A DNA stretch of 64,000 nucleotides, from positions 26,145 to 90,144 of the IMG/VR virus record IMGVR_UViG_3300010401_000032; one strand, written 5' to 3'. Positions within the stretch are counted from its first letter, which is position 1. The number at the start of each line of letters is the position of its first letter. The notes under the pieces are model-generated. The model made no database searches, was not told the DNA's origin, and saw only the letters and a program-made list of their open reading frames with translations. Shown here piece after piece: positions 22,058 through 44,709 of the stretch. This DNA comes from a virus (Duplodnaviria > Heunggongvirae > Uroviricota > Caudoviricetes). The position numbers and the translations under genes are program-made.

Positions 22058-22063
22058 GTCAGA

Positions 22064-22279: not shown

Positions 22280-22284
22280 ACGAT

Positions 22285-22362: not shown

Positions 22363-22373
22363 ACATAATACAA

Positions 22374-22451: not shown

Positions 22452-22458
22452 ATACAAT

Positions 22459-24181: not shown

Positions 24182-24182
24182 A

Positions 24183-24258: not shown

Positions 24259-24276
24259 CCTTTCTTGAAAAAGATC

Positions 24277-24305
24277 TTGACACGATAACTTTTGTAGTAT
24301 ATGCT
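24277..24305 (+). promoter_or_regulatory. sigma70-type promoter TTGACA-N15-17-TATATG/TATGCT
   Basis: TTGACA 24277-24282; -10-like hexamers at 24298-24305; ATG 24313. Confidence 0.4.
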
Positions 24306-24312
24306 TTGAACG

Positions 24313-25102: not shown

Positions 25103-25303
25103 ATGAAGTATATCAATCGTTATACGATTCAGGACGAGAATCAGATCGAGTATGCCTCATTCATTGATTACAAAAAGGCTTTTGAGTGTCTTGAAATTGC
25201 AAACATGGGGCAAATGCTGAAATCTAACTGGCAAGGTAAACATTACGCAGTCGTCGAAAAATCGGTCGAAGTTTCCAAGAATATTCGCACGCTTACCTTT
25301 TGA
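25103..25303 (+). CDS. hypothetical protein
   Basis: 66-aa ORF. Confidence 0.35.
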   Translation: MKYINRYTIQDENQIEYASFIDYKKAFECLEIANMGQMLKSNWQGKHYAVVEKSVEVSKNIRTLTF

Positions 25304-25320
25304 TGTAGTATAGTACGGGC

Positions 25321-25713
25321 ATGAAACGGTCTCTCCTCCAGGAAGCCCTGCGGATTGCCATCCGCAAGAACACTCCTGAAACTCACGAAGAGTGGAAAAA
25401 TTACGCCCACTTTACGTTCGTTGTGCAAGGAAATAAAATCGTAGAATGGGGAACAAACCGAAAAGGTGAAGCGTCTATCGTGTTTGGATTTGATCCCTCC
25501 CGACATAAGACCCACGCTGAGATCGATGCTTATCAAAAGGCTCGCGGACTCTTGAAAAAGAACAAACCTTTTGAAGTAATTAACGTGCGACTTAATCGAA
25601 CAAATGATACTCGTCTTTCGGCACCTTGTAAATGCTGCACGGCATTCCTTAATTCAATTGGCTGTAGAAAGACGTGGTTTACTACTGACCTTGGATGGGC
25701 AGTAACAGGATAA
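25321..25713 (+). CDS. cytidine/deoxycytidylate-deaminase-fold zinc enzyme (possibly tRNA adenosine deaminase-like)
   Basis: HAEIDA (H[AC]E) and PCKCC (PCxxC) zinc-binding motifs at correct spacing; 130 aa. Confidence 0.55.
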   Translation: MKRSLLQEALRIAIRKNTPETHEEWKNYAHFTFVVQGNKIVEWGTNRKGEASIVFGFDPSRHKTHAEIDAYQKARGLLKKNKPFEVINVRLNRTNDTRLSAPCKCCTAFLNSIGCRKTWFTTDLGWAVTG

Positions 25714-25721
25714 CTTAGTAC

Positions 25722-25799
25722 CCGCAAGAAGCATAATCGGTATATGCTCCGAGCTTATATCTCGGCGACAGGTGGGTTCGAATCCTCCCTTGCGGACCA
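25722..25799 (+). tRNA. tRNA with anticodon TAT (Ile2-like, AUA-reading)
   Basis: Acceptor CCGCAAG/CTTGCGG (perfect 7 bp). D-stem GCAT/ATGC. Anticodon stem CCGAG/CTCGG, loop CTTATAT. T-arm GTGGG-TTCGAAT-CCTCC (one mismatch). CCA encoded. A8 instead of U8. Confidence 0.5.
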
Positions 25800-25811
25800 A
25801 TACACAAAAAT

Positions 25812-25934
25812 ATGGACGACACAATTATTCAGGAAGTAATGGAATTCGGATGCAAAGTCTGCGGCGAGCCTATTGAAGAATACGGTATTTGCCAGGATTG
25901 TATTGAAGCACACGTAGATAGCGATGGAAACTGA
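25812..25934 (+). CDS. small zinc-ribbon protein (40 aa)
   Basis: MDDTIIQEVMEFGCKVCGEPIEEYGICQDCIEAHVDSDGN; CxxC-x10-CxxC. Confidence 0.3.
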   Translation: MDDTIIQEVMEFGCKVCGEPIEEYGICQDCIEAHVDSDGN

Positions 25935-26297
25935 GGGCGAGTATTTCATTAAACACTGGCCAAGCTCGATCGGCTGGCTTGCGTTAAATGCTCCACTAGA
26001 AGTCCTCCACTGTATTGATATTTTAAGCACAGATTATCAATGGATAGCTAGGCAATATGATCTGCTTAAAACAGAGTATAATCTGGGTCTAAAGTATTAT
26101 TCTCCAAATTAAATGTCCGCTGTTCCCGATACCGGTCTTCTAAACCGATGGCTTTAAATAATTGGGTGGAGCCGTAATGTTCAATTCATTCAGCGGATGC
26201 CAATATAGTCTAATTAATTAGATTTCTGTAGACCGACTAAGACGTTAGGGGTGTACTATCCATAGGGTAGATCCTACATCTTAGAGGAGGAAATCTA

Positions 26298-27953
26298 ATG
26301 AAATTTTTGACAACTGTGGTTTTAGCATGTATTTTAAGTTTAAATGCGTTTGGGCAACAGGTCCAAATGGGGAACGGCCGAGACGCCCAAGGCTGGACGA
26401 CATTTACAGCAAGTGCAGATACCCGCACTATCTATGTAAGTAGCTCGACCGGTAATGACGCTAACGATGGACTAACTCCCTCGACTCCCAAGCGTACGAT
26501 CGCGACAGGCAAGGCATTATTACGTAATACGTTTCCAGACTGGTTGCTTTTAAAGAGAGGCGACACTTGGCACGAAAATTTCGGCCAATGGAAAACCGGC
26601 GGACGTTCTCCGCAAGAGATGATGGTAGTAGGAGCCTATGGAGACGGCGAACGCCCACTATTGCTAACAGGAGCACAAGATGGTATTTACGCTTTTGCCA
26701 ATAACGGGACTCCAAATAGAATTAGCAATATTGCTTTCGTGAGCTTATCATTTATAGCAGATACCTATGACGGCAGCCAATCATGCCAAGGTATTGAATG
26801 GTTACTAACCGGCACAAACATGTTGGTCGAAGACCTTAGCGTTCAAGGATATAATGGCGGAATAGTTGTTTCATCTACCTCTGGCGATAACAACGATTTA
26901 ATGAGTCATAACCTTGTCATTAGACGTAACGAAGTGCTTGATTGTTATGCTTTAAATAATGTAAGCAATAGCGAAGGCATGTTCATCTGGCATGTCGAGG
27001 GCATTCTCATTGAAGAGAACGTACTCGATCACAACGGATGGAACGACAACGTTCCTGGTGCCGGTGCGACAATGTTTAATCAAAACGTTTATATCCAAAA
27101 CGGATGTCTCAACGCGACTTTCATTAACAACATTTCATGTCGTGCAGGATCGCACGGACTACAACAACGCTGCGGCGGTCTGACCCAGAATAACCTATTT
27201 ATAGGTAATTCACTCGGTCTAATGAGCGGCGGCGGATCTTTCCCAGAGCACGATGGCGTGCAATGTATCGTAGATAGAAATATTATCACTGAACCAAAAG
27301 ATATTTCGCCGAGCCTTCCAAGAGGATGCTCGCTTGAAATATCAAATATCACAAACGGTAGCGTAACTAATAATCTAATCTTTAGAAACTTAGACGCTCA
27401 CGATCCTCGTGGTATTTATATTCACGGAACTGCTGTTGCTAATGACGGGACACCCACGATCGGCGTTCACAATGTTCTACTTTCTAGAAATGTGATTTAC
27501 AATATGCCTCAACCCTTTTTAATTGAGGGTAACGCAACGCAAATTACTGGTATCACTATGAGGGGTAATGACGCCCAGGATCACGTAGGTCTATTGCAAT
27601 GGATTCACTTGTGGAACCAAATGAACGCATCGGCTGCTGCCAATATTCAAAGCACAAATAATACGTTCTGGAGTGATCACTTGCCAGCAGGCGATTGGAT
27701 GTATGTAGGTACACCAATGAACTTTGCTCAATGGCAAGCGGCATTACATGACAATTCTTCTACGGTTGTCAATAAAGGATATTTCGACAGTAACGCGACG
27801 ATTGCGTCATACAACGCATTCGCTGGCGGACAAGCTACGTTGGCCGATTTCTATACTCAAATCAGAGCACAGAGAAAAGGTCACTGGAATGCATTCTACA
27901 CAACTGCGGTTATTAATCGCTGGCTGAGAAGAGCATTCGATATGCAGAAGTAA
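26298..27953 (+). CDS. secreted right-handed beta-helix (pectate-lyase-fold) protein
   Basis: RBS GGAGG. N-terminal signal peptide MKFLTTVVLACILSLNAFGQQ. Repeated NN(L/I)xxxN beta-helix rungs (NNLIFRN, NNISCRAGSHG, NNVSNSEG). Confidence 0.55.
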   Translation: MKFLTTVVLACILSLNAFGQQVQMGNGRDAQGWTTFTASADTRTIYVSSSTGNDANDGLTPSTPKRTIATGKALLRNTFPDWLLLKRGDTWHENFGQWKTGGRSPQEMMVVGAYGDGERPLLLTGAQDGIYAFANNGTPNRISNIAFVSLSFIADTYDGSQSCQGIEWLLTGTNMLVEDLSVQGYNGGIVVSSTSGDNNDLMSHNLVIRRNEVLDCYALNNVSNSEGMFIWHVEGILIEENVLDHNGWNDNVPGAGATMFNQNVYIQNGCLNATFINNISCRAGSHGLQQRCGGLTQNNLFIGNSLGLMSGGGSFPEHDGVQCIVDRNIITEPKDISPSLPRGCSLEISNITNGSVTNNLIFRNLDAHDPRGIYIHGTAVANDGTPTIGVHNVLLSRNVIYNMPQPFLIEGNATQITGITMRGNDAQDHVGLLQWIHLWNQMNASAAANIQSTNNTFWSDHLPAGDWMYVGTPMNFAQWQAALHDNSSTVVNKGYFDSNATIASYNAFAGGQATLADFYTQIRAQRKGHWNAFYTTAVINRWLRRAFDMQK

Positions 27954-28018
27954 TTACTCTTCGTAAATAGGCTTTTAGGGAGATCGGAAGAACTTTTTCC
28001 GGCCTCCCGAATTTTTAC

Positions 28019-28047
28019 TTGACACGCTCCTCGCGATAGGGTATAAT
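28019..28047 (+). promoter_or_regulatory. consensus sigma70 promoter TTGACA-17-TATAAT, near-leaderless to ATG 28056
   Basis: TTGACA 28019-28024, TATAAT 28042-28047, ATG 8 nt downstream. Confidence 0.65.
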
Positions 28048-28055
28048 ACGGCGGT

Positions 28056-28316
28056 ATGACTATCAAAGAAGAGATCGAAAAACTAAACGTACAAATTCGT
28101 GGATTGTACGACGAAATCAAAAAACTACAGGATCAGTGTCTTCATCCGAAGTTTGTTCGGGGACTCACTATGGTTGCCTGCGTGCAATCTTGCTACATTT
28201 GTGAAGATTGTGGTTTTACAAAACCCATGCCAATCGAAGACATGACAGAATCGACCGATAAGACCTACTGGGAGTTTAACGGAAGCATTTTTCCCCTTGA
28301 CGGATCGGCAGGATAG
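28056..28316 (+). CDS. hypothetical Cys-containing small protein
   Basis: 86-aa ORF. Confidence 0.4.
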   Translation: MTIKEEIEKLNVQIRGLYDEIKKLQDQCLHPKFVRGLTMVACVQSCYICEDCGFTKPMPIEDMTESTDKTYWEFNGSIFPLDGSAG

Positions 28317-28414
28317 GGTATAATAGAGCACATTGGGTCCGAAGCATTAACAGTGATGCTCTCGCCTTTTAAGCCTGAGAAGAAGGGGCAGTACCTTCCG
28401 GACTCACCAAAACA

Positions 28415-28639
28415 ATGAAGATGACAGAAATTCCCATCGGTAAGCCTTTCAGGATTATCGATAATCAATGGTATAACCAATTTGTATTTGAGCGTCTAGA
28501 CCACGCTCAAATCCGAAATTTGGATACAGGTGACGTTGGAGAAATCAATCATTTTCTTGAAATAGAAGAGGTCGCGGAGTACATTCCTGGCGACCCCGAA
28601 CGAATCAAGCGATATCTGGCAAAGAAGGTGACACAATGA
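28415..28639 (+). CDS. hypothetical protein
   Basis: 74-aa ORF. Confidence 0.35.
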   Translation: MKMTEIPIGKPFRIIDNQWYNQFVFERLDHAQIRNLDTGDVGEINHFLEIEEVAEYIPGDPERIKRYLAKKVTQ

Positions 28640-29109
28640 CCCACACGAACCGCGATCTATTACAAGCAATCAACCTAGCGTTGCTGGCACACGGTTCGCA
28701 ATTGGACAAGGCGGGAATGCCCTATATTCTACACCCCCTGTATGTCATGGGGCAGGTAGATTCGACCGATGCAAAAATTGTAGCAGTATTGCATGACGTT
28801 ATTGAAGACACCGCAGTAACATTTGTTTACAATCGAATCTGCGAACTTGTAGGTATCAGTCTTTGGGGAACCACTTATTTCTTCGAAGATAAGATTCTGC
28901 ACGCCTTAGAAGCGATCACACATCGTAAGGGCGAGACGAACATACAGTATTGGACCCGCGTTAAGGCTAACCCGCTCGCCCTTACGGTGAAGCTGGCAGA
29001 CATCGCACACAACTCTTCGGAAGGGCGGCTAGCTGCCCTTCCGAAGGGTGAACAAGAGCGTTTACGTGCCAAGTATCACATGGCAAGAGAATATCTACTG
29101 GAAACTTAA
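28636..29109 (+). CDS. HD-domain small alarmone hydrolase (RelA/SpoT hydrolase-like)
   Basis: HGSQLDKAGMPYILHPLYV ... LHDVIEDT matches SpoT/Mesh1 hydrolase HD motifs. Confidence 0.6.
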   Translation: MTHTNRDLLQAINLALLAHGSQLDKAGMPYILHPLYVMGQVDSTDAKIVAVLHDVIEDTAVTFVYNRICELVGISLWGTTYFFEDKILHALEAITHRKGETNIQYWTRVKANPLALTVKLADIAHNSSEGRLAALPKGEQERLRAKYHMAREYLLET

Positions 29110-29111
29110 AT

Positions 29112-29750
29112 ATGCGACGTAACAAAGATCTATGTGTTAAGATTGCCCGCGACGTTCTTTTACAGCTTAAAAAAGGACGCTACGATCCCGTTCCCGGTAT
29201 TTATATTGAAGTAAATCTTGGTAGTCTTTTTGAAGACCATAATGGCGATATCATTGAAACCGTGAATGATCCGTTTGATGAAAGTGACGATCCTGAAATA
29301 AAGATTGTTGCAAAACCAGGCGGTTCTTTTAAGAAATTATTTAAAGAAGAAAAAGAGATTACTTGTACCGTCTGTGCCCTGGGAGCAGCTTTCATATCGT
29401 TAATCAACGTAAGAAATCGGTGTTCCAATGGCGAAGTAATAAATAATTCTCCTGAGAATATGTTCGATCGACTGGAAAAGGTCTTCGGTCAGCGTAATAT
29501 AGGTTTAATGGAAACGGCATTTGAAACAGAACCAATGCGGTTCGCTATGGGATTATCTCAAGTAGACATTGAGGCCGCTATTGAATATGGCGACCAATAT
29601 AAGAACGACACAGAACGCCTTCGTATGATTATGCGTAACGTTATTCGTAACAAGGGAGACTTTATTCTTCCACAGAAAATTGTTAAGCGTGTCGAGATGG
29701 AGTTGAGTGGAAAAAGGCAACGTATTATCCCGTATGACATGTACTATTAA
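29112..29750 (+). CDS. hypothetical protein
   Basis: 212-aa ORF. Confidence 0.45.
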   Translation: MRRNKDLCVKIARDVLLQLKKGRYDPVPGIYIEVNLGSLFEDHNGDIIETVNDPFDESDDPEIKIVAKPGGSFKKLFKEEKEITCTVCALGAAFISLINVRNRCSNGEVINNSPENMFDRLEKVFGQRNIGLMETAFETEPMRFAMGLSQVDIEAAIEYGDQYKNDTERLRMIMRNVIRNKGDFILPQKIVKRVEMELSGKRQRIIPYDMYY

Positions 29751-29752
29751 TT

Positions 29753-29836
29753 GGCCCCGTGGTGGAATGCAGACACAATAGACTCAAAATCTATCGCCCT
29801 TAAAGCGTGCCGGTGCAAGTCCGGCCGGGGCTACCA
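29753..29836 (+). tRNA. tRNA-Leu(CAA), type II
   Basis: Acceptor GGCCCCG/CGGGGCT. D-stem GTG/CAC. Anticodon stem ATAGA/TCTAT, loop CTCAAAA. 14-nt variable arm. T-arm GCCGG-TGCAAGT-CCGGC. CCA encoded. Confidence 0.65.
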
Positions 29837-29853: not shown

Positions 29854-30015
29854 ATGAAAGCACAGAAATTTAAACTAATCATCGAAAGCGATAAAAAGAT
29901 CACGACGAGTGATGTCCTTGATTTACTTCAAAAGCACCTCCAGGTCACAATCACCTCGTTAGCGGTAGTCGACTGGGACACGAAAGAAGCAGAAGGGATC
30001 TATTCACTAGAATGA
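29854..30015 (+). CDS. small hypothetical protein (53 aa)
   Basis: ATG 29854; stop TGA overlaps ATG of RNA ligase (ATGA). Confidence 0.3.
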   Translation: MKAQKFKLIIESDKKITTSDVLDLLQKHLQVTITSLAVVDWDTKEAEGIYSLE

Positions 30016-31082
30016 GCGATCTATTAGTTAGAGTAGTAAAAGTAGACGAAGTGAATCGGCATCCGAATGCTGATAAGCTTGAAATAGTTAAAGTTGGAGG
30101 CTGGCAGATTGTGTCTGGCCTTGGCAATTACAAGGTCGGCGATCTAGTGGTTCACGTGCCGCCCGAGTGTCTCGTGCCCAAAGAGTGGGCCGATAAGTGG
30201 TCCGTGACTCCCTATCTATCGTGGAAGTCCAACGCGGCCAAGGGCAGAGTGAAGGCGGTAAAACTTCGCCAAGCGGCGAGCTATGGATTTCTAGCTCCCA
30301 ACGAATCTGGAGCGGAAATTGACACAAACGTTGCCGACTTCTATGGAATTGAGAAATACGAAGAGCCCGAACCGCTCGATTTTGGCCAAGCGGCCCGTCA
30401 ACATCCATACTTCCATAAATACACTGATATTGCGAGCCTCCGGAACTTTCCAAAAAGCTTAAAATATGATGAACCAGTTTGGGTAACTGAAAAGCTGCAT
30501 GGAACAAACTCAAGGGTCGGATGGATAAAATCTCAAGATGAAAATGGGACCCCATACCTTGAAAAAGTCATCGGCACTCATCGCACTCAGCGTAAACTTG
30601 AGAATGCCGGTGTCTATGGGCTGCCGTTTGAATTATACGGCGACGGGCTTGAAAAAGCGAAGAGCTTAATAGAAGACGTAATGAAAACGCCGATAGATTC
30701 AATTATTTTCTTTGGCGAAATCTTTGGTCCCGGCGTTCAAGATCTACAATACGGTCTAAAAGACAAGGACTGGAGACTATTCGATATTGCTGTAAATGGC
30801 GAATATTTTCCTTATGACTACATAAGAGAGGTTTCTAGTCAGTGCAATATACCGATCGTGCCTAATTACGCTCCCTATATGTACAGCTTTGAGCAATTGT
30901 GCGAACTAGCAGAAGGTAAATCCGCATTAGCGGAAGGACAAATAAAAGAAGGTATTGTGGTCCGTCCAATGCGAGAACTTACATGGGGAAAGGGTGAACT
31001 TGATCCCAATCCAAAACGAATGATTTTCAAGCTTATAAACTCAGATTACCTATGCCGAAAAGGCGGAACAGAAAAACACTAA
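30012..31082 (+). CDS. RNA ligase (Rnl2/Rnl5-like nucleotidyltransferase) with N-terminal tRNA-binding OB (EMAP/Myf-like) domain
   Basis: N-terminal VVKVDEVNRHPNADKLEIVKVGGWQIVSG resembles the MetRS/PheRS-beta tRNA-binding domain; ligase motif I KLHGTN. Confidence 0.65.
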   Translation: MSDLLVRVVKVDEVNRHPNADKLEIVKVGGWQIVSGLGNYKVGDLVVHVPPECLVPKEWADKWSVTPYLSWKSNAAKGRVKAVKLRQAASYGFLAPNESGAEIDTNVADFYGIEKYEEPEPLDFGQAARQHPYFHKYTDIASLRNFPKSLKYDEPVWVTEKLHGTNSRVGWIKSQDENGTPYLEKVIGTHRTQRKLENAGVYGLPFELYGDGLEKAKSLIEDVMKTPIDSIIFFGEIFGPGVQDLQYGLKDKDWRLFDIAVNGEYFPYDYIREVSSQCNIPIVPNYAPYMYSFEQLCELAEGKSALAEGQIKEGIVVRPMRELTWGKGELDPNPKRMIFKLINSDYLCRKGGTEKH

Positions 31083-33334: not shown

Positions 33335-33362
33335 TTGACATTATGTAAAGGTGTGCTATACT
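33335..33362 (+). promoter_or_regulatory. sigma70-type promoter TTGACA-16-TATACT, leaderless to ATG 33369
   Basis: TTGACA 33335-33340, TATACT 33357-33362, ATG 6 nt downstream; preceded by 10-bp inverted repeat 33301-33336. Confidence 0.55.
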
Positions 33363-33368
33363 ATAGAG

Positions 33369-33836
33369 ATGAAGCTAGTTATTCTACGTGGACCTAGTGG
33401 GTCGGGCAAGAGCACAATAAGTGGACATATTTGGTGGAATATTATTCCTAAGGAATGGAGCGTCGTACACGAAGCTGATCAATTCTTTACTAAGACACTA
33501 GGGAGTGGAGATACATACAAATTTAACCAAACAATGCTCTCGAAGGCTCATGACTGGTGTAGATTAAACGTAGAACGAAGCATGTATGTAGGTGAAAACG
33601 CAATTGTTGCTAACACAAACATGAGCCTTCGAGAGATCGAGCCCTATATCGAGCTAGCAGACCAATATAATTACGAAACAGAGATTTGGCGTACTCCAGG
33701 CCCGTGGGATCCCGAAATACTTTTCCAACGGAACGTTCATAATGTTCCGTTGGAAGTGCTCAAGCGACAAATCGCCCGCTATCAACCTCATGCAGAAGAA
33801 AAGGAATGGTCGGACTTGACCATATTCAATGCTTAA
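33369..33836 (+). CDS. polynucleotide 5'-kinase (T4 Pnk kinase-domain-like), kinase domain only
   Basis: MKLVILRGPSGSGKST P-loop; VANTNMSLRE and NVPLEVLKRQIARY match T4 Pnk ISDTNLNPE / VPIDVLRSMYKSM. Confidence 0.6.
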   Translation: MKLVILRGPSGSGKSTISGHIWWNIIPKEWSVVHEADQFFTKTLGSGDTYKFNQTMLSKAHDWCRLNVERSMYVGENAIVANTNMSLREIEPYIELADQYNYETEIWRTPGPWDPEILFQRNVHNVPLEVLKRQIARYQPHAEEKEWSDLTIFNA

Positions 33837-34116
33837 TGCTCAAAATAGTAAGTGCTGGACATGTCTCCATGGTATTTGCTTACAAGAAAGTGAACAAGAA
33901 GAAATCAGTGGTATCCCGATAGAAGATGACGGCGAGCAACAAAAATATCCGTTCGCTATCGATGATCAAGACGAGGAAAACGAAGAGGAAGAGGGCAGTG
34001 CTATAATCGAAAGGGCACGAGTCAAGGCTATTTGTTTCTGGCGTCCGGAAGGTCTACAGTCACCGCCTATTCTTGTTGGGCAAGTAAAGGAATGCAGTAG
34101 ATACGAAGCAAAATGA
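33829..34116 (+). CDS. hypothetical acidic protein
   Basis: 95-aa ORF. Confidence 0.35.
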   Translation: MLNAQNSKCWTCLHGICLQESEQEEISGIPIEDDGEQQKYPFAIDDQDEENEEEEGSAIIERARVKAICFWRPEGLQSPPILVGQVKECSRYEAK

Positions 34117-34556
34117 TTACATCATTTCATACTCCTGAAACAGAATTCTTAAGTAATTTCTATCTTTGTTGCGTGCCGTATGAGGGTTTCATATATCCGT
34201 CAGCAGAAAACGCTTATCAAGCTGCCAAGACTTTAAATATAAAAGCCAGAAGTGCATTTACTCTTGAAGAAATGACTCCGGCTATGGCGAAGCACTTGGG
34301 TAAAATCATAAAGATTAGATCCGATTGGGACCAAGAGAAACTCCAGGTCATGTGGGATATCTTAAGTTCTAAGTTTGAAGATCATGATTTGAAGCGACTA
34401 TTACTAGCAACTGGTGATCAAGAATTAGTAGAAGGAAACAATTGGGGAGATGTATACTGGGGAGTATGTAAAGGTAAGGGTGAAAATAATCTCGGAAGGC
34501 TTTTAATGAATCTCCGTAAGAAACTCAACGATGAACAGTTCACTAACAATCTGTAG
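34113..34556 (+). CDS. NADAR (YbiA-like, DUF1768) domain protein
   Basis: FLSNFY..EN.YQA.K...W....ELVEGNNWGD.YWGV...GENNLGRLLM pattern of NADAR family. Confidence 0.65.
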   Translation: MITSFHTPETEFLSNFYLCCVPYEGFIYPSAENAYQAAKTLNIKARSAFTLEEMTPAMAKHLGKIIKIRSDWDQEKLQVMWDILSSKFEDHDLKRLLLATGDQELVEGNNWGDVYWGVCKGKGENNLGRLLMNLRKKLNDEQFTNNL

Positions 34557-35775
34557 CCAGATAAGAGATGCGGGAGGCACTCCGTACATAGTCGGGGGCT
34601 ATGTCCGAGATACGATCATGGGCAAGTGTCCGAAGGACACTGATATTGTCGTAGTTGGTTTTAGCTTTCCTCAACTAACTAATCTATTTGCAGCCAGTAA
34701 GATTATTGGTAAAGATTTTCCGGTAATACAGGTAGACGGAATTGAAATTGCACTAGCTAGAAAAGAAAGAAAAATTGATACTGGCCATACCGGATTCATA
34801 TGTGACACGCTAGGGGTTTCGCTGGAAGAGGACCTATTCCGCCGCGATTTAACTATAAATGCGATGGCAATGGACCCGTTCACGGAACAAATCACGGATC
34901 CATTTGGAGGAAGGGCGGATATCAATAACAAGATGATCCGGCCGGTCAGCATCCATTTCAAGGAAGATCCACTTAGGGTTTTACGAGCAGCACGATTTGC
35001 AGCACAATTCGATATGGATCTCTGCTTGCAGGTAAGCATAATGGCACAAGAGATGATGGCCGAGCTAACTACACTGACACCTGAGCGTGTTTGGGGAGAA
35101 ACTCTAAAGGCTCTCAAAACCGACAATCCTCAACGCTTTTTCGAAGCTTTGAATGAGATGGAGGTTTTGGAGATTGTATTCCCCGAAATCGCCGCACTCA
35201 AGGGACGCATTCAGCCGGAGAAGTATCATCCGGAGGGTTGCGTATTTACGCATTTCTTACAGGTGTTAGAACGTGCTAGAAATTTAGGTGCCGACGAAGA
35301 AACAATGTTCGCCGCCATGTGTCACGATCTAGGTAAGGCTGTTACTCCAGATGAGGATCTTCCTAGACATATAAATCATGAAGCGTTGGGAGTGCCGATC
35401 GTTGAAAGTCTTTGCGAAAGATTGAAAATTCCCAATTCTTTTAGACATGTGGCCGTGCTAACAGCTAGAGAGCATTTAAACATACATCGTTTTCAAGAAT
35501 TGAAGCCCGTAACTCAGGTACGTCTTATTACTAGACTTAATGGTATTCATGATGACATTACTCTAAAAAGGATTTGTATGGCATCTATGGCAGATGCTAG
35601 AGGACGTGGACCAGTCTATTGGAATAAAGAATATCCACAAGCAGATGCAGTATTAAAAGCGGCAGAAATTATCCGGTCCGTTCGTGGCGACCAATTTGCA
35701 CATTTAAAGGATGGCAATATTATCGCTCAAAAATTAGAGCAGGCGAGAACAAAGGCACTTGGATCCACTAGATAG
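34531..35775 (+). CDS. cca: tRNA nucleotidyltransferase (CCA-adding enzyme) with C-terminal HD domain
   Basis: Head-domain motif YIVGGYVRD-x8-DTDIVV (GGxVRD..DxD); length 414 aa. Confidence 0.7.
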   Translation: MNSSLTICSQIRDAGGTPYIVGGYVRDTIMGKCPKDTDIVVVGFSFPQLTNLFAASKIIGKDFPVIQVDGIEIALARKERKIDTGHTGFICDTLGVSLEEDLFRRDLTINAMAMDPFTEQITDPFGGRADINNKMIRPVSIHFKEDPLRVLRAARFAAQFDMDLCLQVSIMAQEMMAELTTLTPERVWGETLKALKTDNPQRFFEALNEMEVLEIVFPEIAALKGRIQPEKYHPEGCVFTHFLQVLERARNLGADEETMFAAMCHDLGKAVTPDEDLPRHINHEALGVPIVESLCERLKIPNSFRHVAVLTAREHLNIHRFQELKPVTQVRLITRLNGIHDDITLKRICMASMADARGRGPVYWNKEYPQADAVLKAAEIIRSVRGDQFAHLKDGNIIAQKLEQARTKALGSTR

Positions 35776-36241
35776 ATTTTGGATAAAAGTTAATAAGAAC
35801 TCTGGTACATTCGGAGCAAATGGACTATTTGAAACCGAATGTTGGGAATGGACTGCAAGTTTAACTGCCAAAGGTTATGGAAGATTTTGGCCAATTGGTA
35901 GACGCGGTTATCATGCACATAGATATTCTTGGATTATACATTTTGGAAAAATAGACGACGAAGTAAACGTTTGTCATAAATGTGATAATAGAAAATGTAT
36001 ACGACCAGATCATTTGTTTATAGGAACGCAAATAGAAAACATTAAAGATATGGACCTTAAGGGCAGGCGTCAACCAGCTAGAGGCCCGTCTCACGGGAAT
36101 GTTAAATTAACTCCAGGTGAAGTTCTTACAATTCGTTCGCTATGGCCAAGTACAAGATATTGTGATATAGCTCGTGATTTCAATATTAGTCATGGAACAG
36201 TAATGGATATTGTTAAACGACGCAGTTGGAAACACATATGA
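35759..36241 (+). CDS. HNH endonuclease
   Basis: HAHRYSW..NVCHKCDNRKCIRPDHLFIGTQIEN. Confidence 0.7.
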   Translation: MDPLDRFWIKVNKNSGTFGANGLFETECWEWTASLTAKGYGRFWPIGRRGYHAHRYSWIIHFGKIDDEVNVCHKCDNRKCIRPDHLFIGTQIENIKDMDLKGRRQPARGPSHGNVKLTPGEVLTIRSLWPSTRYCDIARDFNISHGTVMDIVKRRSWKHI

Positions 36242-37308
36242 AGAATCCCATCCTTTTAAAGCAAATGCTAAAAGAGGTAGAAGCTGGAAATGTAACAGCT
36301 TCGAAGTCTGGGGATCTAACTATATTCAAGTACTCACAGGACTGTCATATAGAAGGTAGATGGAATTCTGTCAACAGGATTGCCCGTGGCTTGATCATGA
36401 AAGACGATGGAACAATCGTCGCTCGACCATTTGCTAAATTCTTTAACCTTGGTGAAGTAGCCGAAACACAAATAGGCGAACTCCCGTGGAGTGAGTCTGT
36501 TGAAGTCTACGAAAAGGTAGACGGAAGCTGCGGGATTGGATACCTAGATCAAGACGGATGCTGGAAATTGGCAACTCCTGGGAGTATGGAATCTACACAG
36601 GCAGTTGAAGGTACTCTAATACTGCGTCAGATGTATAGTAAAGGTTTACAATTATTACCACGTGATTGTACTCCGGTATTCGAAATTATATTTCCAGCGA
36701 ATAGAATTGTTGTCGACTATAAAGGCGAAATATTTCTAGCTTTGTTGGCAATATTCGAAAAGAACGGCGAAGAGTGGCATCCTCGCCGCGTCGATCAAAT
36801 TGCTCAAGCCTGCGGCTTTCGCAGACCTAAGCGTTATGATATTGACCTACGCGGAGACATTCCGTTTAATGACAATGAAGAGGGCTACGTTGCTCGCTTT
36901 GAAAGTGGTCTCCGCGTAAAGGTCAAGTCTCCTGCGTACTTAAGAGTCCATAGACTCTTAAACTACATGAGTCCTAAAGGCGTAATCGAATTGATACGCG
37001 GGAAAGAATACGGCGTTACTCTATTACAACTGCCGAAGGGAATCCAACAGGACTTTGACGACATTAGGGCATCGGTTCAAAATTCATACGATGCTCTAAA
37101 GATATCGGTCGAAGACGTAGCACGTCGTATACCAGACGGCGACCGCAAAACAAAGGCCCTATGGATCCAAGCTAACGCTCCAAACCGCCTGAGCGGGCTA
37201 GTATTCGCCTCGATGGATGGCAAGTCCATCGAAGATAAGCTCTGGAGAATTGTTTCGGACGATCTTAAAGAAAAAACAGCACCTATTATTTCGCAGGAAG
37301 CGATATAG
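36226..37308 (+). CDS. ATP-dependent RNA/DNA ligase-family nucleotidyltransferase (Rnl1-like)
   Basis: Motif I EKVDGS (KxDG), motif IV EGYVAR, motif V KVKS. Confidence 0.55.
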   Translation: METHMKNPILLKQMLKEVEAGNVTASKSGDLTIFKYSQDCHIEGRWNSVNRIARGLIMKDDGTIVARPFAKFFNLGEVAETQIGELPWSESVEVYEKVDGSCGIGYLDQDGCWKLATPGSMESTQAVEGTLILRQMYSKGLQLLPRDCTPVFEIIFPANRIVVDYKGEIFLALLAIFEKNGEEWHPRRVDQIAQACGFRRPKRYDIDLRGDIPFNDNEEGYVARFESGLRVKVKSPAYLRVHRLLNYMSPKGVIELIRGKEYGVTLLQLPKGIQQDFDDIRASVQNSYDALKISVEDVARRIPDGDRKTKALWIQANAPNRLSGLVFASMDGKSIEDKLWRIVSDDLKEKTAPIISQEAI

Positions 37309-37837: not shown

Positions 37838-38091
37838 AATGGAAAACTAGAAAACCTAAGCCTATTCCTCAGTCATTTTGGAAGAAGGGTGAGTCTGTAA
37901 CCGTTAGAAAATTTGCCTGGATTCCAACCGCCTGCCAACATGGTGAAACCTATTGGTTAGACTATCTGTATTTTAATTATACCGCACTAGAAGATACGTT
38001 TGTTTCTCCGGGATGTTGTGTAGATTACGAAGATCAAATGACTAGAGAAATATGGCAATTAAATTTCATAGTTCCTTGGAATACTAAATGA
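37834..38091 (+). CDS. hypothetical protein (paralogue of previous ORF)
   Basis: See previous. Confidence 0.4.
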   Translation: MKWKTRKPKPIPQSFWKKGESVTVRKFAWIPTACQHGETYWLDYLYFNYTALEDTFVSPGCCVDYEDQMTREIWQLNFIVPWNTK

Positions 38092-38711
38092 TCCACTATA
38101 ACTTACAAGAATTTATAGCACGTACTAATCACCCAAACGCCGAATACCCGCTTCGCTTTCAAGAGATCATCAGCGGACAAGGACTAGGCATTGTATTCTC
38201 AATAGAAAAGGGACCCTGGTTAGCGGGCGGTGCAGTGCGTCGGTTGTTCGACGGCAGCAATAAAGAAAGTGACTTTGATATTTTCTTTAAAAGCGAGCAG
38301 CAACTAAACGACTTCAAGGCTCAGCTACTAACCTTAGGAGATAAGGTTCTATATGAGAACGATCTTAATGTTACAATGTTGTCTAATAGAGCCGGAATGA
38401 AGCCTTTTAAAGTACAGCTTATAAAGTTCTATTTCGAGAATCCGGAAGATGTATTAAATTGGTTTGACTATACCATCTGCCAGTTTCTAACAGATGGATT
38501 TACATTAATGGTTGGTAACTACACGCTATATGATGTTGGCAGTAAGCGTCTTGCTCTAAATACAGTTCACCACGGACTGTCTACAGTACGACGCATGCTG
38601 AAATACGCCAATCAAGGTTATAGCGTTTGTGACGGAACAATCGTAAATATTCTCAATAGAATAATTAGTAATCCGGAAATTATTAATAGCGGTATTATTT
38701 CTATTGACTAG
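38088..38711 (+). CDS. pol-beta-superfamily nucleotidyltransferase (minimal CCA/poly(A)-type head domain)
   Basis: WLAGGAVRRLFDG-x6-DFDIFF (GGxVR..DxD). Confidence 0.45.
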   Translation: MIHYNLQEFIARTNHPNAEYPLRFQEIISGQGLGIVFSIEKGPWLAGGAVRRLFDGSNKESDFDIFFKSEQQLNDFKAQLLTLGDKVLYENDLNVTMLSNRAGMKPFKVQLIKFYFENPEDVLNWFDYTICQFLTDGFTLMVGNYTLYDVGSKRLALNTVHHGLSTVRRMLKYANQGYSVCDGTIVNILNRIISNPEIINSGIISID

Positions 38712-38847: not shown

Positions 38848-39339
38848 ATGACAAATAAGGCAATCTATTTAGCTGGCGGAATAAGTGGACTTACTTATGA
38901 CGAAGCAACACAGTGGCGAATTGCGACGAAAGCAGCCCTCGAACCATTAGGTATCAAGTGTCTAAGTCCATTGCGAGCGGCCGTGCATTTACGCAATAAC
39001 CAGGGACTTCTAACAGACTGTGAAATAGTTGACGGCATGCAGCCTGAAAACTATGCGGCTCTCACAATGAGCACACCGAGAGGCGTAGTAACACGCGATA
39101 AGTTTGACTGTACTCATTGCGACATGCTTATAGTTAATCTATTGAATGCAAAAAGAGTTTCTATTGGCACGATGGTTGAAATAGGTTGGGCTAGCATGCG
39201 TAATATTCCTATTGTGCTTGTAATTGAAAAAGAAGGCAATATTCATGAGCACGCTTTCGTAAAAGAATCGGCGACCTTTAGAACAGACTCAATCAGCGAA
39301 GCAATCGAAATAGCAAAAGCTATCCTTGGAGATTATTGA
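38848..39339 (+). CDS. nucleoside 2-deoxyribosyltransferase-fold protein (Ndt/DNPH1/LOG-like)
   Basis: N-terminal IYLAGGISG Rossmann-like motif; ~160 aa. Confidence 0.45.
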   Translation: MTNKAIYLAGGISGLTYDEATQWRIATKAALEPLGIKCLSPLRAAVHLRNNQGLLTDCEIVDGMQPENYAALTMSTPRGVVTRDKFDCTHCDMLIVNLLNAKRVSIGTMVEIGWASMRNIPIVLVIEKEGNIHEHAFVKESATFRTDSISEAIEIAKAILGDY

Positions 39340-39965
39340 TGACAAGATTTATAGCATTTTCCGGCAAGAAGCAGGTCGGTAAAGATACTGCCACCGCTAT
39401 GCTGGTTGACGTTTTAAAGGATAGAGGTATTTCGGTCTCTGTAACGGCCTTCGCCGAATCGCTTAAGAGAATGTGTATCGAAATTCTCGGCCTTAAATAT
39501 GAGGGCGTTTATGGTTCGAATGAACAAAAGAATGCCCTGACTAATATTCTGTGGGACAACTTTCCTGAAACTGTCAGAATGAAATACGCGACCGAACGCG
39601 ATCCCACTATGGGAGATTGGTTCCCGCGTTGTGGTCCGATGAGCAGCCGCGAAGTTTTGCAAGTTATGGGATCTGATATTTTCAGGATGATGATTGATAA
39701 CGACGTTTGGGCCAGAGCACCTTTTAATAAGCAATGGGATACCGATGTTGTTATCTTGACCGACTGTCGCTTCCCAAATGAGAAGGCTATCGTCGAAGAA
39801 AAGGACGGCGTAGTTATTCGACTTGAAAGAAATACCGGCTTGCACGATGATCATATCAGCGAGACCGCATTAGATAATGCGGCGTTCGGTATTAAATACC
39901 ATAACAATGGAACTTTAGAAGACCTCAAAGAATTCGTAATCTCATTAGCAAATAAAATCATATGA
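39336..39965 (+). CDS. deoxynucleoside monophosphate kinase (T4 gp1-like)
   Basis: FIAFSGKKQVGKDT P-loop at extreme N-terminus; VVILTDCRFPNE. Confidence 0.6.
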   Translation: MMTRFIAFSGKKQVGKDTATAMLVDVLKDRGISVSVTAFAESLKRMCIEILGLKYEGVYGSNEQKNALTNILWDNFPETVRMKYATERDPTMGDWFPRCGPMSSREVLQVMGSDIFRMMIDNDVWARAPFNKQWDTDVVILTDCRFPNEKAIVEEKDGVVIRLERNTGLHDDHISETALDNAAFGIKYHNNGTLEDLKEFVISLANKII

Positions 39966-40122
39966 ATAAAGAAAACAATTTCTGTATGTCGGGTAACGAA
40001 GCCCGAATTTTAATGGCAGCACTTAGTTCATCCTCGCTGTCTTTACCTGCCGCCATTACATTACAACTTTACGCCCGTTTAAACGAAATCAGTTCTGTAC
40101 AACCTCCTACAAATCAACCACA

Positions 40123-40566
40123 ATGAGCGAATTAATTTTTTCACACAGACCTAAGATTGGTGCAACAGTTGGTGCATTTTCAGAAAATGGAAAGCTATTC
40201 CTAGCTGTATCACTAGTTAATAACGGTACGAGTAGCAATGGTTTATTCCATGCGGAGCGTCGTGACGCATTCTCAAGACAAAAGGGTAGAGCTATTGTCC
40301 AAGGACGTATAGAATCTATGCGTGCTAATCCCGACAGGATCTATTCATTTGGCCTAGTTCTGAATACCGATATGGATTCTCGCGGTTTCATGGCTCAATT
40401 CCGCAAGGTTTTCAAGCCGACTGTCGACGAATCAGACAATCAACTCTTTATGGTAGAAAGCTTTGGCGGTGTAGAAAGTCGACAACGCCCTCAGGCTGCA
40501 AACATACAAGACGCGATTTTTGATATGGCACTAAACATTACTTCAAACAAGAACGCGAGCGTTTGA
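40123..40566 (+). CDS. hypothetical protein
   Basis: 147-aa ORF. Confidence 0.45.
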   Translation: MSELIFSHRPKIGATVGAFSENGKLFLAVSLVNNGTSSNGLFHAERRDAFSRQKGRAIVQGRIESMRANPDRIYSFGLVLNTDMDSRGFMAQFRKVFKPTVDESDNQLFMVESFGGVESRQRPQAANIQDAIFDMALNITSNKNASV

Positions 40567-40567
40567 C

Positions 40568-41167
40568 ATGCGAGTAATGGTAGCGGACACGGAAACGGGC
40601 GGATTAAATCCCAAAGAACATTCTGTGTTCTCTGTCGGTGCCCTTGTCGGCGATCTTGATACGGGCGAAATCATTGAGCAATTCGAAGCCCTGCATCAAT
40701 TACCCTCGATAGCCGACTATAAATATACTCCCAAAGCTATTGAAATACACGGCATCACGCCAAGCAAAGCTTTTGAAGATGGGATTCCAACGCAAGAGAT
40801 TTGCGACAAGCTTGTAGATCTATGGCATAATCATGGAGCAGCCATCATCGGAGGTCATAATTTCGATTATGATGTGAAGATGCTATCGCACCAGATATTT
40901 CATATTGAGACTCAAGAATTTGAGAGTAACTTTACTTATCGCAAATTAGATACTCTGCCGGTCATCAGACTATTTACTGGGAACGATAATGTATCTTCCG
41001 GAGCTAGCCTTACTCAGGCGGCAAAGCTTCTTAATATAGATATGTCCGAGTTTGGCAAGAATAAATTCCACGCGGCTTTATTCGACTCTATTGTTTGCTT
41101 TAAAATCATGTGTAAATTCCGCAAGGTGCTTACTATGCAAGACGTAGTAGATAGGTTGACAGCATGA
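40568..41167 (+). CDS. DEDDh 3'-5' exonuclease (DnaQ-like)
   Basis: Exo I VMVADTETGGL; Exo III HNFDYDVKML. Confidence 0.6.
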   Translation: MRVMVADTETGGLNPKEHSVFSVGALVGDLDTGEIIEQFEALHQLPSIADYKYTPKAIEIHGITPSKAFEDGIPTQEICDKLVDLWHNHGAAIIGGHNFDYDVKMLSHQIFHIETQEFESNFTYRKLDTLPVIRLFTGNDNVSSGASLTQAAKLLNIDMSEFGKNKFHAALFDSIVCFKIMCKFRKVLTMQDVVDRLTA

Positions 41168-41177
41168 ATGTTCTTAA

Positions 41178-41456
41178 TTGGATGTCAGATCATCCCATTC
41201 TGACGTGCGTACTGATAATGATAGTTCTTGTATTCGTATACGAAGTTTTGAAGCTCTTCAAAGGAAAAGAATGAAATTTAACGATTCAAATAAACCGCGT
41301 CGCGATAAAGAGCGTCGCATTTTACAAGGTGCCGGATGGAAAGCCGTCTGGGCATTAAAAGATAACGGATCCTGGTATTGGAAATGGATTCGCAAGGATC
41401 GCAAGAAAGCATATTCTCGCCAACAGGCATTGGAGATTGTTCGTAGAGGTCGATAG
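41178..41456 (+). CDS. hypothetical basic protein
   Basis: 92-aa ORF, Arg/Lys/Trp-rich. Confidence 0.4.
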   Translation: MDVRSSHSDVRTDNDSSCIRIRSFEALQRKRMKFNDSNKPRRDKERRILQGAGWKAVWALKDNGSWYWKWIRKDRKKAYSRQQALEIVRRGR

Positions 41457-41944
41457 TGGGTAACTATCGGTTTGATGGGCGTTCCAAGAAGCAATTTGAA
41501 CGCGATATTAAATCGCGTACGATGGAGGAACGTTCTCTATTCTTAATGTGGTTAGATTTGCTTGAAAAGCAAACAGGCAAACGGCCAGCTTATAAGGACA
41601 CCGGCTGCGGAAAGAATGGCGAGCTTCTAGAAGAGAATGAGGTCTCCACTAGTCCAGACTTCGACGTTGAAGGCTATGGAAGAGTGGAAGTAAAGTTTAG
41701 CAAGCCAATGCTAACTAAATGTTTTCATTTAAAGGTCAATCAAGTCAAACAATATACAAAGACTGACGTGACCATACTGATGATTAATGGGGCGGATAAC
41801 GATATTCCAACTTTTACCATGCTTAAGCCGCCAGCTTTAAAAGCTATCATTAAAGACTGCGAAGTGGTTGAATGGGTAGGCTTTGGGTTTAAGAGTTCGT
41901 TCAAAATCCCGATCAGTAAGTTTGTGTGGAGGCCATTGAAATGA
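41456..41944 (+). CDS. hypothetical protein
   Basis: 162-aa ORF. Confidence 0.45.
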   Translation: MGNYRFDGRSKKQFERDIKSRTMEERSLFLMWLDLLEKQTGKRPAYKDTGCGKNGELLEENEVSTSPDFDVEGYGRVEVKFSKPMLTKCFHLKVNQVKQYTKTDVTILMINGADNDIPTFTMLKPPALKAIIKDCEVVEWVGFGFKSSFKIPISKFVWRPLK

Positions 41945-42381
41945 ATTATCCTTCGGACGATACATTTGAGGAAGCTCGACGAAATCGTATGCCTCCTGGT
42001 TTCAAAGAATATACTAATGAAAATTCATATCAAAATGTTATAAACTATATTCGTCACAATATGGAGTATTATGAGACGCATGTTCATTCGTGTTGTGAAG
42101 ATTTTAGGCCAGGGATAACGGCTCAGGGTGCTGTGATGGCACTAAAAGAAATACTAGAGCATTTTAATGCGGATTTTTCTGGCCATAAACTTAAATGCAA
42201 TAGTGGTGACTTACAATGTAGATGTGGTATTTCACAATTTATAGTTACTAAAGTAGAAAAGTCGCTCGCTTATTACGAATGCAAGTGTGGAAACAAATGG
42301 ACCGACGACGAATATCCTTTTGCTACATATTGTTATTGTCCGGCCTGTAAAAAGAAGATCGATGGCACGCAATATGAATAA
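41926..42381 (+). CDS. Cys-rich (zinc-binding) hypothetical protein
   Basis: HSCCEDF, CNSGDLQCRCG, CKCGNKW, CYCPACKKK. Confidence 0.45.
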   Translation: MEAIEMNYPSDDTFEEARRNRMPPGFKEYTNENSYQNVINYIRHNMEYYETHVHSCCEDFRPGITAQGAVMALKEILEHFNADFSGHKLKCNSGDLQCRCGISQFIVTKVEKSLAYYECKCGNKWTDDEYPFATYCYCPACKKKIDGTQYE

Positions 42382-42384
42382 TAT

Positions 42385-42990
42385 TTGGGATGCACTAGCC
42401 TAATGCGATTCAATATTATATTACCGACAATAGGACGTGACTCACTGTCACAGACGGTGGCATCTGTTCTTGGTCAAGACTATGATAATTGGCGACTTTT
42501 TATTATAGGTGACGGTATAAATATAGAAACTCTCCATCCTTACTTTGAAATGGATGGACGTATAGAAGCGTCCGTTATTGTTGAAAGAGGATATGATTCT
42601 GGTGCATGGGCAAGAAACAGTGCTATATTACAAGGCCACAGTGAATGGATTGCTTATATAGACGATGACGACGTTTGGCTGCCTAGCCATCTGTCAACAA
42701 TAGTACATGCAATCAACAATAATCCGGGCGTTAACATGGTTCGCACCGCCGGCCAGCCTTTCTATTGGAAGCACAAAAGTCCTCGAAGCAGTAAGTTGGT
42801 TCGTAAACTAGGGCAAGTAAATGATAGTGATATTTTCACTGTCGGTATGGCTCACACTAGAGAACTATTCAAGAAAACAAAAGGCTGGCAACCCGGAGAG
42901 GCACACGATAGAGACCTATGGAACGAAATGTTAAGAGTTGGCGGCAATCCCTTTGTGTCAGATATTGTAACTTTCGAGTTTGAACGATGA
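42385..42990 (+). CDS. family-2-like glycosyltransferase
   Basis: FNIILPTIGRDSL...YIDDDDVWLPSHL (DxD). Confidence 0.5.
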   Translation: MGCTSLMRFNIILPTIGRDSLSQTVASVLGQDYDNWRLFIIGDGINIETLHPYFEMDGRIEASVIVERGYDSGAWARNSAILQGHSEWIAYIDDDDVWLPSHLSTIVHAINNNPGVNMVRTAGQPFYWKHKSPRSSKLVRKLGQVNDSDIFTVGMAHTRELFKKTKGWQPGEAHDRDLWNEMLRVGGNPFVSDIVTFEFER

Positions 42991-43286
42991 AAAATAGAGA
43001 AGCAGAAATAGATGCACAAATAAAGATCTTGTCGGAAGAAAAGGAAAAAATTCGCCGCAATAAGCTTTGGCACTGTCCTTTTTGTAAGAAGAAAACAATG
43101 ATCAAAAATTTGAGTCTCGTAATGCACTATAAATATCATTATGAAGACTACGATCCAACGGGGTTAATTTCTATAACCTGTCCTAAATGTTCAAAATTAT
43201 CTAATGGTTACTGCACTGACAACAATTGGGAAAAATTCTATAATCTACAATTATACTTTAGGAACGTAAAACGTATTTCGGAATGA
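42987..43286 (+). CDS. zinc-ribbon protein
   Basis: CPFCKKK ... CPKCSKLSNGYC. Confidence 0.4.
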   Translation: MKNREAEIDAQIKILSEEKEKIRRNKLWHCPFCKKKTMIKNLSLVMHYKYHYEDYDPTGLISITCPKCSKLSNGYCTDNNWEKFYNLQLYFRNVKRISE

Positions 43287-43416
43287 AATTACACTGGTAT
43301 TATATGATTCATATTTGTTGTCCGGTATGTGGTAGTGAAAATATATATAGAGAAAGACGCTATCATTCACGACCGATCGAATATAACGATAGACATAAAT
43401 TCGAAGAACAATATGA

Positions 43417-44676: not shown

Positions 44677-44709
44677 GGCTTAGTGTATTTTCAAATGTAG
44701 GAGGCTCTT

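Follow-up and report, generated by a model that had tools for sequence, protein, structure and literature searches.

Orphan phage NADARs that act against DarT1 are known from work that appeared in 2025, and the proximity of phage NADARs to RNA-repair genes had been noted in 2022. Among the orphan enzymes, AdfN(Bas32) (bas32_0066) from the T5-like phage IrisVonRoten (Bas32) neutralises the toxicity of DarT1 in E. coli (Johannesman et al. 2025, PMC11825919) and lets RB69, T5, and Bas25 form plaques again on a DarTG1 host, although not on a DarTG2 host (PMC11825919). The AdfN of T4 (gp30.3, PF08010) removes G-ADPr only, and to be fully active it depends on other T-even factors (PMC11825919, PMC12945103). 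G-ADPr is removed by every NADAR family tested, from ssDNA (PMC11125620) and from RNA (PMC11833690), and C-ADPr in DNA and RNA is removed by the Glu-type NADAR and YbiA families, not by DarG1 or the T4 NADAR (PMC12945103); NADARs are inactive on thymine-ADPr. E. coli YbiA, the product of a housekeeping gene in a LexA-controlled operon, is known as an N-glycosidase for riboflavin intermediates and also removes G-ADPr and C-ADPr in vitro. Although YbiA and the T4 NADAR are both active in vitro, neither rescues uninfected cells from DarT1 toxicity (PMC11125620). The families are separated by a single position, E125 of the Phytophthora nicotianae enzyme PnNADAR, which is Glu in YbiA/NADAR, Asp in DarG1, and His in T4-like phage NADARs (PMC11543638).

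Here, we describe a NADAR gene in a stretch of 64,000 nucleotides (the window) of phage DNA, which encodes rIIA, ribonucleotide reductase (RNR), 20 tRNA genes, and other phage genes. The rIIA protein shares at most 38% identity with that of any sequenced phage and a megablast search with the 10-kb region around the NADAR gene returned no match; the source is a novel large phage of ~161 kb. Three further metagenome contigs, one of 161 kb from Logan and two shorter ones (ENA, JGI), encode an identical NADAR protein in the same gene order. The features of the locus are collected in Table 1.

Table 1. Features of the NADAR locus, in window coordinates.
Feature	Position	Strand	Remarks
Sigma-70-like promoter sequence (putative)	33335..33362	+	TTGACA-16 nt-TATACT with TG extension, in the SSB-kinase gap; 11/12 positions, best scan match of the region
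P-loop kinase (AAA_33)	33369..33836	+	Weakly similar to the C. thermocellum Pnkp polynucleotide kinase domain, E 1.4e-3
Acidic ORF (p95)	33829..34116	+	95 aa; 8-nt overlap with the kinase stop, 4-nt overlap with the NADAR start
NADAR-domain protein, CDS	34113..34556	+	147 aa, ATG to TAG; stand-alone, Glu type, AdfN(Bas32)-like
Codon E32	34206..34208	+	PnNADAR E43, E. coli C7 NADAR E88, T4 AdfN E36; catalytic, ribose-contacting Glu
Codon K39	34227..34229	+	PnNADAR K50, C7 K95, T4 K43; catalytic, phosphate-contacting Lys
Codon E107	34431..34433	+	PnNADAR E125; family-separating position
Codons D113-V-Y-W116	34449..34460	+	PnNADAR D130/W133, pyrophosphate contacts; in clade motif EGNxWGDx[FY]WG
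CCA-adding tRNA nucleotidyltransferase with HD domain	34531..35775	+	26-nt overlap with the NADAR 3' end
HNH endonuclease	35759..36241	+	Between the CCA enzyme and Rnl1
T4 Rnl1-type RNA ligase	36226..37308	+	

The preliminary description of this DNA had read a NADAR/YbiA pattern in a stand-alone protein of 147 aa and had pointed to a Pfam search for PF08719, in which a missing NADAR match would speak against it. The ORF proved exact, and its product matches PF08719 (NADAR/DUF1768) with an E-value of 6.9e-24 and a score of 85.4 bits, where the gathering cutoff is 35.1 bits, along model positions 9-162 of 163. It also matches phrog_1017 in PHROGs (E 6e-41). The protein is a single domain with no fusion, and no second NADAR is encoded in the window. 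At E<=1e-3, 931 homologues were retrieved in a database search, nearly all of them ~140 aa long with PF08719 as the sole domain. The ORF and its domain match are therefore real, far beyond what chance would produce.

When an AlphaFold2 model of the protein, built with 47 homologues as input, is inspected (mean pLDDT 89.5, pTM 0.83), the YbiA-like fold is present, with its alpha-helical core and small beta-hairpins on the flanks. Foldseek returned E. coli YbiA (PDB ID: 2B3W) as the best solved match (TM 0.82, E 1.6e-8), followed by PnNADAR in complex with ADP-ribose (PDB ID: 8BAU; TM 0.73, E 3.6e-6), while the DarT1-associated NADAR of G. lovleyi (PDB ID: 8BAT) matched weakly (TM 0.43, E 1.6). 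PnNADAR contacts ADP-ribose through E43, K50, K75, R79, W89, R93, E125, D130, and W133 (Schuller et al., PMC11543638). A HMMER alignment with 8BAU and 2B3W, whose chain numbering is offset by +2, places these residues, in the same order, at E32, K39, K60, K64, W72, K76, E107, D113, and W116 of the phage protein; all nine ADP-ribose-contacting or catalytic positions are thus identical or conservatively replaced. D113 to W116 fall in a loop (residues 110-121) that has a pLDDT below 50 in the model.

These residues are also kept among relatives. E32 and K39, which correspond to the catalytic Glu and Lys whose roles have been described (PMC11543638, PMC11825919), are invariant in all 114 aligned sequences, and W72, E107, D113, and W116 are each kept in at least 112 of them; K60 is kept in 109/114 and K76 in 90/114. 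At the E107 position, Glu is found in 113 of the 114 sequences, AdfN(Bas32) and YbiA among them. Since E107 occupies the position of PnNADAR E125, we assign the protein, by alignment, to the Glu type (the YbiA family sensu de Souza and Aravind) and not to the phage His type. The earlier expectation of catalytic Glu/His residues accordingly held in part: the catalytic set is intact (E32, K39, E107), but its signature residue is the Glu of this type and not the His of T4-like proteins.

Judged by sequence similarity, the closest experimentally tested relative of the phage protein is AdfN(Bas32), with 43% identity over 141 aa (E 2e-35), an identity from which specificity in vivo is not readable because YbiA, which is 37% identical (E 1e-23), and the T4 NADAR both fail to rescue cells from DarT1. 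The T5-like phage NADARs as a group share the same 43% identity with it, PnNADAR shares 27%, and BLASTP gave no alignment with T4 AdfN/gp30.3. The motif VEGNxWGDx[YF]WGVCxGxGxNxLG is common to the phage protein, AdfN(Bas32), and the NADARs of Delftia phage PhiW-14 and Xylella phage Sano, and at its position YbiA carries VEHTENDAYWGDGGHGKGKNRLG; over the first part of this motif, the comparison is between VEGNxWGDxYWGVC in the clade and VEHTENDAYWGDGG in YbiA. In a neighbour-joining analysis of 114 sequences, with gp30.3 as the root and without support values, AdfN(Bas32) falls within the phage clade of the query and YbiA branches outside; AdfN(Bas60), the sigma-70-linked NADAR, and U56 are not among these sequences.

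The resemblance to AdfN(Bas32) extends beyond identity. Both are orphan, core-only phage NADARs (~148 aa in AdfN(Bas32)) with a Glu-type catalytic set and no adjacent toxin gene, both lack an N-terminal DNA-binding extension, and both carry EGNxWGDxYWGVCxGxGxNxLG. AdfN proteins are phage-encoded NADARs without an adjacent DarT toxin, and the immediate neighbours here are a kinase, p95, and a CCA enzyme. The two differ in their surroundings: AdfN(Bas32) comes from a T5-like siphovirus and is flanked by RNase H, thymidylate synthase, and RNR, whereas the present gene belongs to a novel ~161-kb phage with rIIA and has RNA-repair genes as neighbours. YbiA likewise shares the Glu at the family-defining position and the minimal core fold, yet it is encoded by a housekeeping gene and leaves cells unprotected against DarT1 (PMC11125620).

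Other memberships were considered and rejected. The T4-type NADAR (gp30.3) resembles the query in belonging to the NADAR superfamily, in its orphan, antitoxin-like logic, and in the conserved catalytic E and K. The query, however, gives no PF08010 match in a Pfam scan, is not matched to gp30.3 by BLAST, and has Glu at the family-defining position; His is the residue reported for the T4-like NADARs (PMC11543638, PMC11825919), where our own alignments are unreliable and place either Q or a nearby H. Membership of the DarG1/BC4488 antitoxins fares no better. DarG1 proteins (G. lovleyi 8BAT, E. coli C7) share the chemistry, namely hydrolysis of guanine-N2-ADP-ribose, but carry a basic N-terminal extension, have Asp replacing Glu, and are encoded with darT1 next door, whereas the 147-aa phage protein begins at the core, has E107 and no ART neighbour, and matches 8BAT weakly. 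The DS32_2 defence NADARs were set aside on the score of their own model, NF053876 (DS32_2 NADAR anti-phage protein), which gives the phage protein 56.5 bits against a curated cutoff of 240 bits. PnNADAR differs in being eukaryotic and in having extra N-terminal and inserted elements.

We therefore suggest, on the strength of this kinship and of the intact residues, that the most likely role of the protein, and a fairly probable one, lies in counter-defence, directed at a DarT1-like or pierisin-like ADP-ribosyltransferase that modifies phage DNA. Such a course would begin with early synthesis of the NADAR from a host-type promoter, giving what is predicted to be a catalytically competent, core-only, Glu-type ADP-ribosylglycohydrolase. 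Its predicted action is cleavage of the N-glycosidic bond that joins ADP-ribose to the nucleobase, so that ADP-ribose is set free and the base restored, with guanine modified at N2 as the expected substrate, and probably cytosine too, in single-stranded nucleic acid. Marks set on replicating phage DNA by a host transferase of the DarT1 or the pierisin/ScARP type would thereby be erased, in the manner of the AdfN proteins. The same residues and the same relationship to AdfN(Bas32) lend support to the candidate function proposed in the preliminary description, that of an ADP-ribosyl-guanine hydrolase or anti-DarT-type factor.

Weighing against this reading are the local operon, which points to RNA, the low confidence of the model in the loop that holds D113 to W116, and the fact that the protein passes the cutoff of TIGR02464, a model named for a riboflavin-intermediates N-glycosidase.

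The operon is compact. The kinase, taken to start at the ATG at 33369 used by the gene caller, has the Pnkp polynucleotide kinase domain of C. thermocellum as its sole solved relatives. The promoter ahead of it, although a strong sigma-70-like match, is only suggestive, since shuffled sequence yields at least as many promoter-like sites in total as the region does. The HNH endonuclease is likely a mobile insertion, and the variant contig L003 has a different ORF in its place. Further upstream of the NADAR gene lie an Rnl5-type ligase (3 kb) and an array of 20 tRNA genes (4.3-18.7 kb; positions 15420-29836). NAMPT and Nudix genes are found at 5.9-8.1 kb of the window, and an ATP-dependent DNA ligase gene at 22.8 kb. 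The preliminary description had placed the gene in a phage region next to NAD-salvage and DNA-repair genes, which holds loosely for the phage context but not for the adjacency, as the nearest genes are those of RNA repair and the NAMPT and DNA ligase genes are 26 kb and 10 kb upstream. Locally, the NADAR gene thus sits within a cassette for RNA/tRNA repair, expression of which is probably early. No gene for KptA/Tpt1, a macro domain, or an ART was detected among the ~65 window ORFs scanned against Pfam or PHROGs, a scan that is not exhaustive in that several ORFs have no match at all.

This arrangement invites an RNA-directed reading, which we regard as unlikely, in which the NADAR strips ADP-ribose from guanosine or cytidine of tRNA or other RNA modified by an RNA-targeting ADP-ribosyltransferase of the host, and the healing and sealing of tRNAs that had been cleaved or trimmed would fall to the kinase, the CCA/HD enzyme, and Rnl1. 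It would account for the run of overlapping genes (kinase, p95, NADAR, CCA/HD, HNH, and Rnl1) behind one promoter-like site, for the Rnl5-type ligase and the tRNA array upstream, and for a second large phage (L030) in which the NADAR gene lies 1.1 kb upstream of a CCA enzyme gene. It is consistent, too, with the removal of G-ADPr and C-ADPr from RNA by NADARs in vitro (PMC11833690, PMC12945103), with the preference of YbiA for RNA over DNA when the modified base is G (PMC11833690, PMC12945103), and with an earlier prediction of a link between NADARs and RNA repair (PMC9503650). However, NADARs are inactive on the 2'-OH-ADPr and phosphate-end ADPr of RNA (PMC11833690). Overlapping genes are, moreover, commonplace in phage genomes, and the linkage to RNA repair is not conserved. 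To our knowledge, no anti-phage system that ADP-ribosylates tRNA bases has been described.

The lack of conservation is apparent when the neighbourhoods of related genes are compared. We examined 68 IMG/VR loci encoding NADAR relatives, with up to 8 kb of flank on each side, using the neighbours from the window as tblastn queries, and found NAMPT in five loci, DNA ligase in three, and the CCA enzyme, Rnl1, Ro60, and SPFH in one each. When the NADAR neighbours in 65 viral loci, five genes per side, were clustered, no family occurred in more than six of these loci, the commonest being a nucleotidyltransferase-like protein and a GIY-YIG endonuclease. A conserved linkage to RNA repair or to NAD salvage was accordingly rejected, given these low counts and the absence of a recurrent family. 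Among 60 cellular loci, no neighbour family was present in more than three, tandem NADAR paralogues (six loci) excepted, and there was no toxin partner. An adjacent ART or a conserved partner gene is absent across the 65 viral and 60 cellular loci, and the NADAR is therefore an orphan, a free-standing module that acts alone. Its RNA-repair context is specific to the lineage of this phage, and perhaps also to L030.

Two apparent partners were considered along the way and rejected. ORFs of ~95 aa that overlap the NADAR start by 4 nt, as p95 does, are also present in PhiW-14 and in T5-like phages, but the three proteins are unrelated: that of PhiW-14 is a DUF4326 protein, and the small ORFs of Bas32 and of the window are matchless. 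p95 itself has no Pfam or PHROG match and no homologue beside the NADAR in the 65 viral loci. A recurrent NADAR-kinase module was suggested by Xylella phage Sano, where the NADAR neighbour is a protein combining AAA_33 with a cytidylyltransferase-like part, but the two kinases share the P-loop only and that of Sano has the cytidylyltransferase-like tail. Across annotated phages, the neighbours of NADAR genes belong to nucleotide metabolism or are unannotated. The informative ones elsewhere lie in the NAD/ADP-ribose network (DUF4326 directly upstream in PhiW-14, SLOG in L030, the AAA_33 and cytidylyltransferase-like protein of Sano, and NAMPT), in agreement with Iyer et al. (PMC9503650).

An activity on small molecules is an alternative to counter-defence on DNA that we regard as no more likely than the RNA-directed one; under it, the protein would be an N-glycosidase acting like YbiA on the reactive ribosylaminopyrimidines of the riboflavin pathway, or else on a soluble NAD or ADP-ribose derivative such as an immune signal or a toxic by-product. 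A role against soluble ADP-ribose derivatives has been proposed for phage NADARs (PMC9503650), the phage also encodes cREC, Nudix, and NAMPT, and YbiA is both 37% identical and the best structural match, with the same type of Glu. The TIGR02464 score of 80.4 bits nominally points the same way, but its margin over the cutoff of 73.7 is slim, and because the scores fall from true YbiA (169.5 bits) through the query to AdfN(Bas32) (66.3 bits), passing this cutoff is poor evidence for a riboflavin role. Further, a scan of ~65 window ORFs against Pfam or PHROGs turned up no riboflavin (rib) gene, the protein is not fused to RibA/RibD, and the query groups with AdfN(Bas32) rather than with YbiA. We know of no NADAR for which activity on soluble immune signals has been demonstrated.

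A stronger version of the RNA-directed reading would make the NADAR the third activity built into a phage operon for tRNA repair, alongside the Pnkp-like kinase, the CCA/HD enzyme, and Rnl1, cleaning the bases of tRNA or other RNA; this we hold to be improbable. Were it true, hosts would have to possess a defence, as yet undiscovered, in which translation is shut down through ADP-ribosylation of tRNA bases, and the phage a pathway that repairs both the chemical and the nucleolytic damage to RNA. Least probable is that the protein is a non-enzymatic binder of ADP-ribose that blocks a NADase-type defence effector, as reported for a phage NADAR that inhibits Retron-Eco1 and works without enzymatic activity (Carabias et al. 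2024, as cited in PMC11825919), for although the ADP-ribose-binding residues are conserved in the query, catalytic E32, K39, and E107 are strictly conserved throughout the clade, which favours catalysis.

Counter-defence on phage DNA thus remains the reading we favour, and under it a novel ~161-kb environmental phage would be added to those that carry orphan NADAR counter-defence enzymes of the AdfN(Bas32)-type clade. What is new at this locus, given the published orphan NADARs, is the tight kinase-NADAR-CCA-Rnl1 arrangement, and this position in an RNA-repair operon offers a natural case for asking whether NADARs act on RNA in vivo. The minimal Glu-type NADAR with the motif EGNxWGDx[FY]WG is very widespread. 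It is present in 488 records of sequenced phages, and the clade extends to cellular genomes as well, with at least 550 matches in a GTDB scan, in Planctomycetota, Acidobacteriota, Streptomyces, Clostridia, and archaea. The wide spread of such a minimal enzyme with no fixed partner suggests that reversing the ADP-ribosylation of nucleobases is a common need.

The HNH endonuclease gene between the CCA-adding enzyme and the T4 Rnl1-type RNA ligase looks like a mobile insertion when the window is compared with L003, a variant contig. The two are otherwise 99.6% identical, and L003 departs from the window sequence at position 35237, inside the CCA gene, carries an unrelated 105-aa ORF in place of the HNH gene and regains identity at the start of Rnl1. 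The phage encodes RNA ligases of two different types, the other being a Naegleria-like enzyme of the Rnl5 type with its OB domain at the N-terminus, and a Pnkp-like kinase and the CCA-adding enzyme, which has an HD domain, are encoded between them. The coordinates of these and the other features are collected in the table.

Features in the window and in other viral loci
Sequence	Position	Feature
Window	1326-3476	Ro60/TROVE protein and methyltransferase
Window	4338-8093	NAD/ADP-ribose-network genes
Window	15420-29836	tRNA array
Window	16141-16217	tRNA with CTA anticodon
Window	30012-31082	Rnl5-type RNA ligase
Window	33335-33371	Predicted promoter
Window	33829-34116	95-aa ORF
Window	35237-36241	Segment differing from L003
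Window	36226-37308	T4 Rnl1-type RNA ligase
Window	38088-38711	207-aa protein
Window	38848-48731	Nucleotide-metabolism and further genes
L003, variant contig	3112-3970	Counterpart of window 35237-36241
L006, Delftia phage PhiW-14	5705-6510	NADAR and DUF4326 genes
L007, unrelated 364-kb IMG/VR contig	9433-10782	Ro60 homologue
L030, IMG/VR contig	2204-5012	NADAR to CCA-adding enzyme

A sigma-70 promoter close to consensus (TTGACA-16-TATACT with TG) is predicted upstream of this set. The end of its -10 element and the kinase ATG at 33369 are 6 nt apart, so that an mRNA of the kinase-NADAR-CCA-Rnl1 genes started here would have no leader or almost none. The 95-aa ORF, translationally coupled on both sides, to the kinase and to NADAR, contains a CxxC motif, and its central part is strongly acidic (DDQDEENEEEEG); Pfam and PHROG searches gave no match for it, and no homologue was found beside NADAR genes in the 65 viral loci compared.

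Bacterial and archaeal chromosomes commonly carry members of the minimal NADAR clade to which the window gene belongs (for example OZ241991.1). Among the GTDB genome loci (L087-L166), tandem NADAR paralogues occur at six, a single complete Bryobacterales chromosome has three NADAR genes, and no neighbour of NADAR is conserved. In PhiW-14 the NADAR start is overlapped by 4 nt by a DUF4326 protein annotated as NrdA.1, and in L030 NADAR is followed by a 120-aa ORF, a SLOG (YAcAr) protein, a 171-aa ORF and a CCA-adding enzyme; both arrangements fit the published NADAR-SLOG-DUF4326 links.

Genes of the NAD/ADP-ribose network are clustered elsewhere in the window, where a cREC (cyclic-phosphate processing receiver) domain protein, a calcineurin-type phosphoesterase, an HNH endonuclease, a Nudix protein, a small winged-helix protein and NAMPT may form a module for NAD+ reconstitution or the processing of ADP-ribose derivatives. 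The phage also encodes a 509-aa Ro60/TROVE and vWA-like protein, directly followed by a SAM-dependent methyltransferase; the L007 homologue of Ro60 lies within 8 kb of a NADAR gene.

Downstream of the repair genes, the 207-aa protein may be a further anti-defence gene. The contig annotation records a Pfam match to Gad2 (PF26128), which our Pfam search did not reproduce, and the protein also matches nucleotidyltransferase PHROGs. Beyond it, genes for a nucleoside 2-deoxyribosyltransferase, a dNMP kinase, a family-2 glycosyltransferase and a UDG-superfamily protein may point to modified DNA; methionine aminopeptidase, peptide deformylase and PhoH follow. The tRNA array comprises 20 genes, with small ORFs and HNH genes in between, and includes an amber-suppressor type with a CTA anticodon, labelled tRNA-Pyl by ARAGORN; the stop codon of the NADAR gene is TAG.
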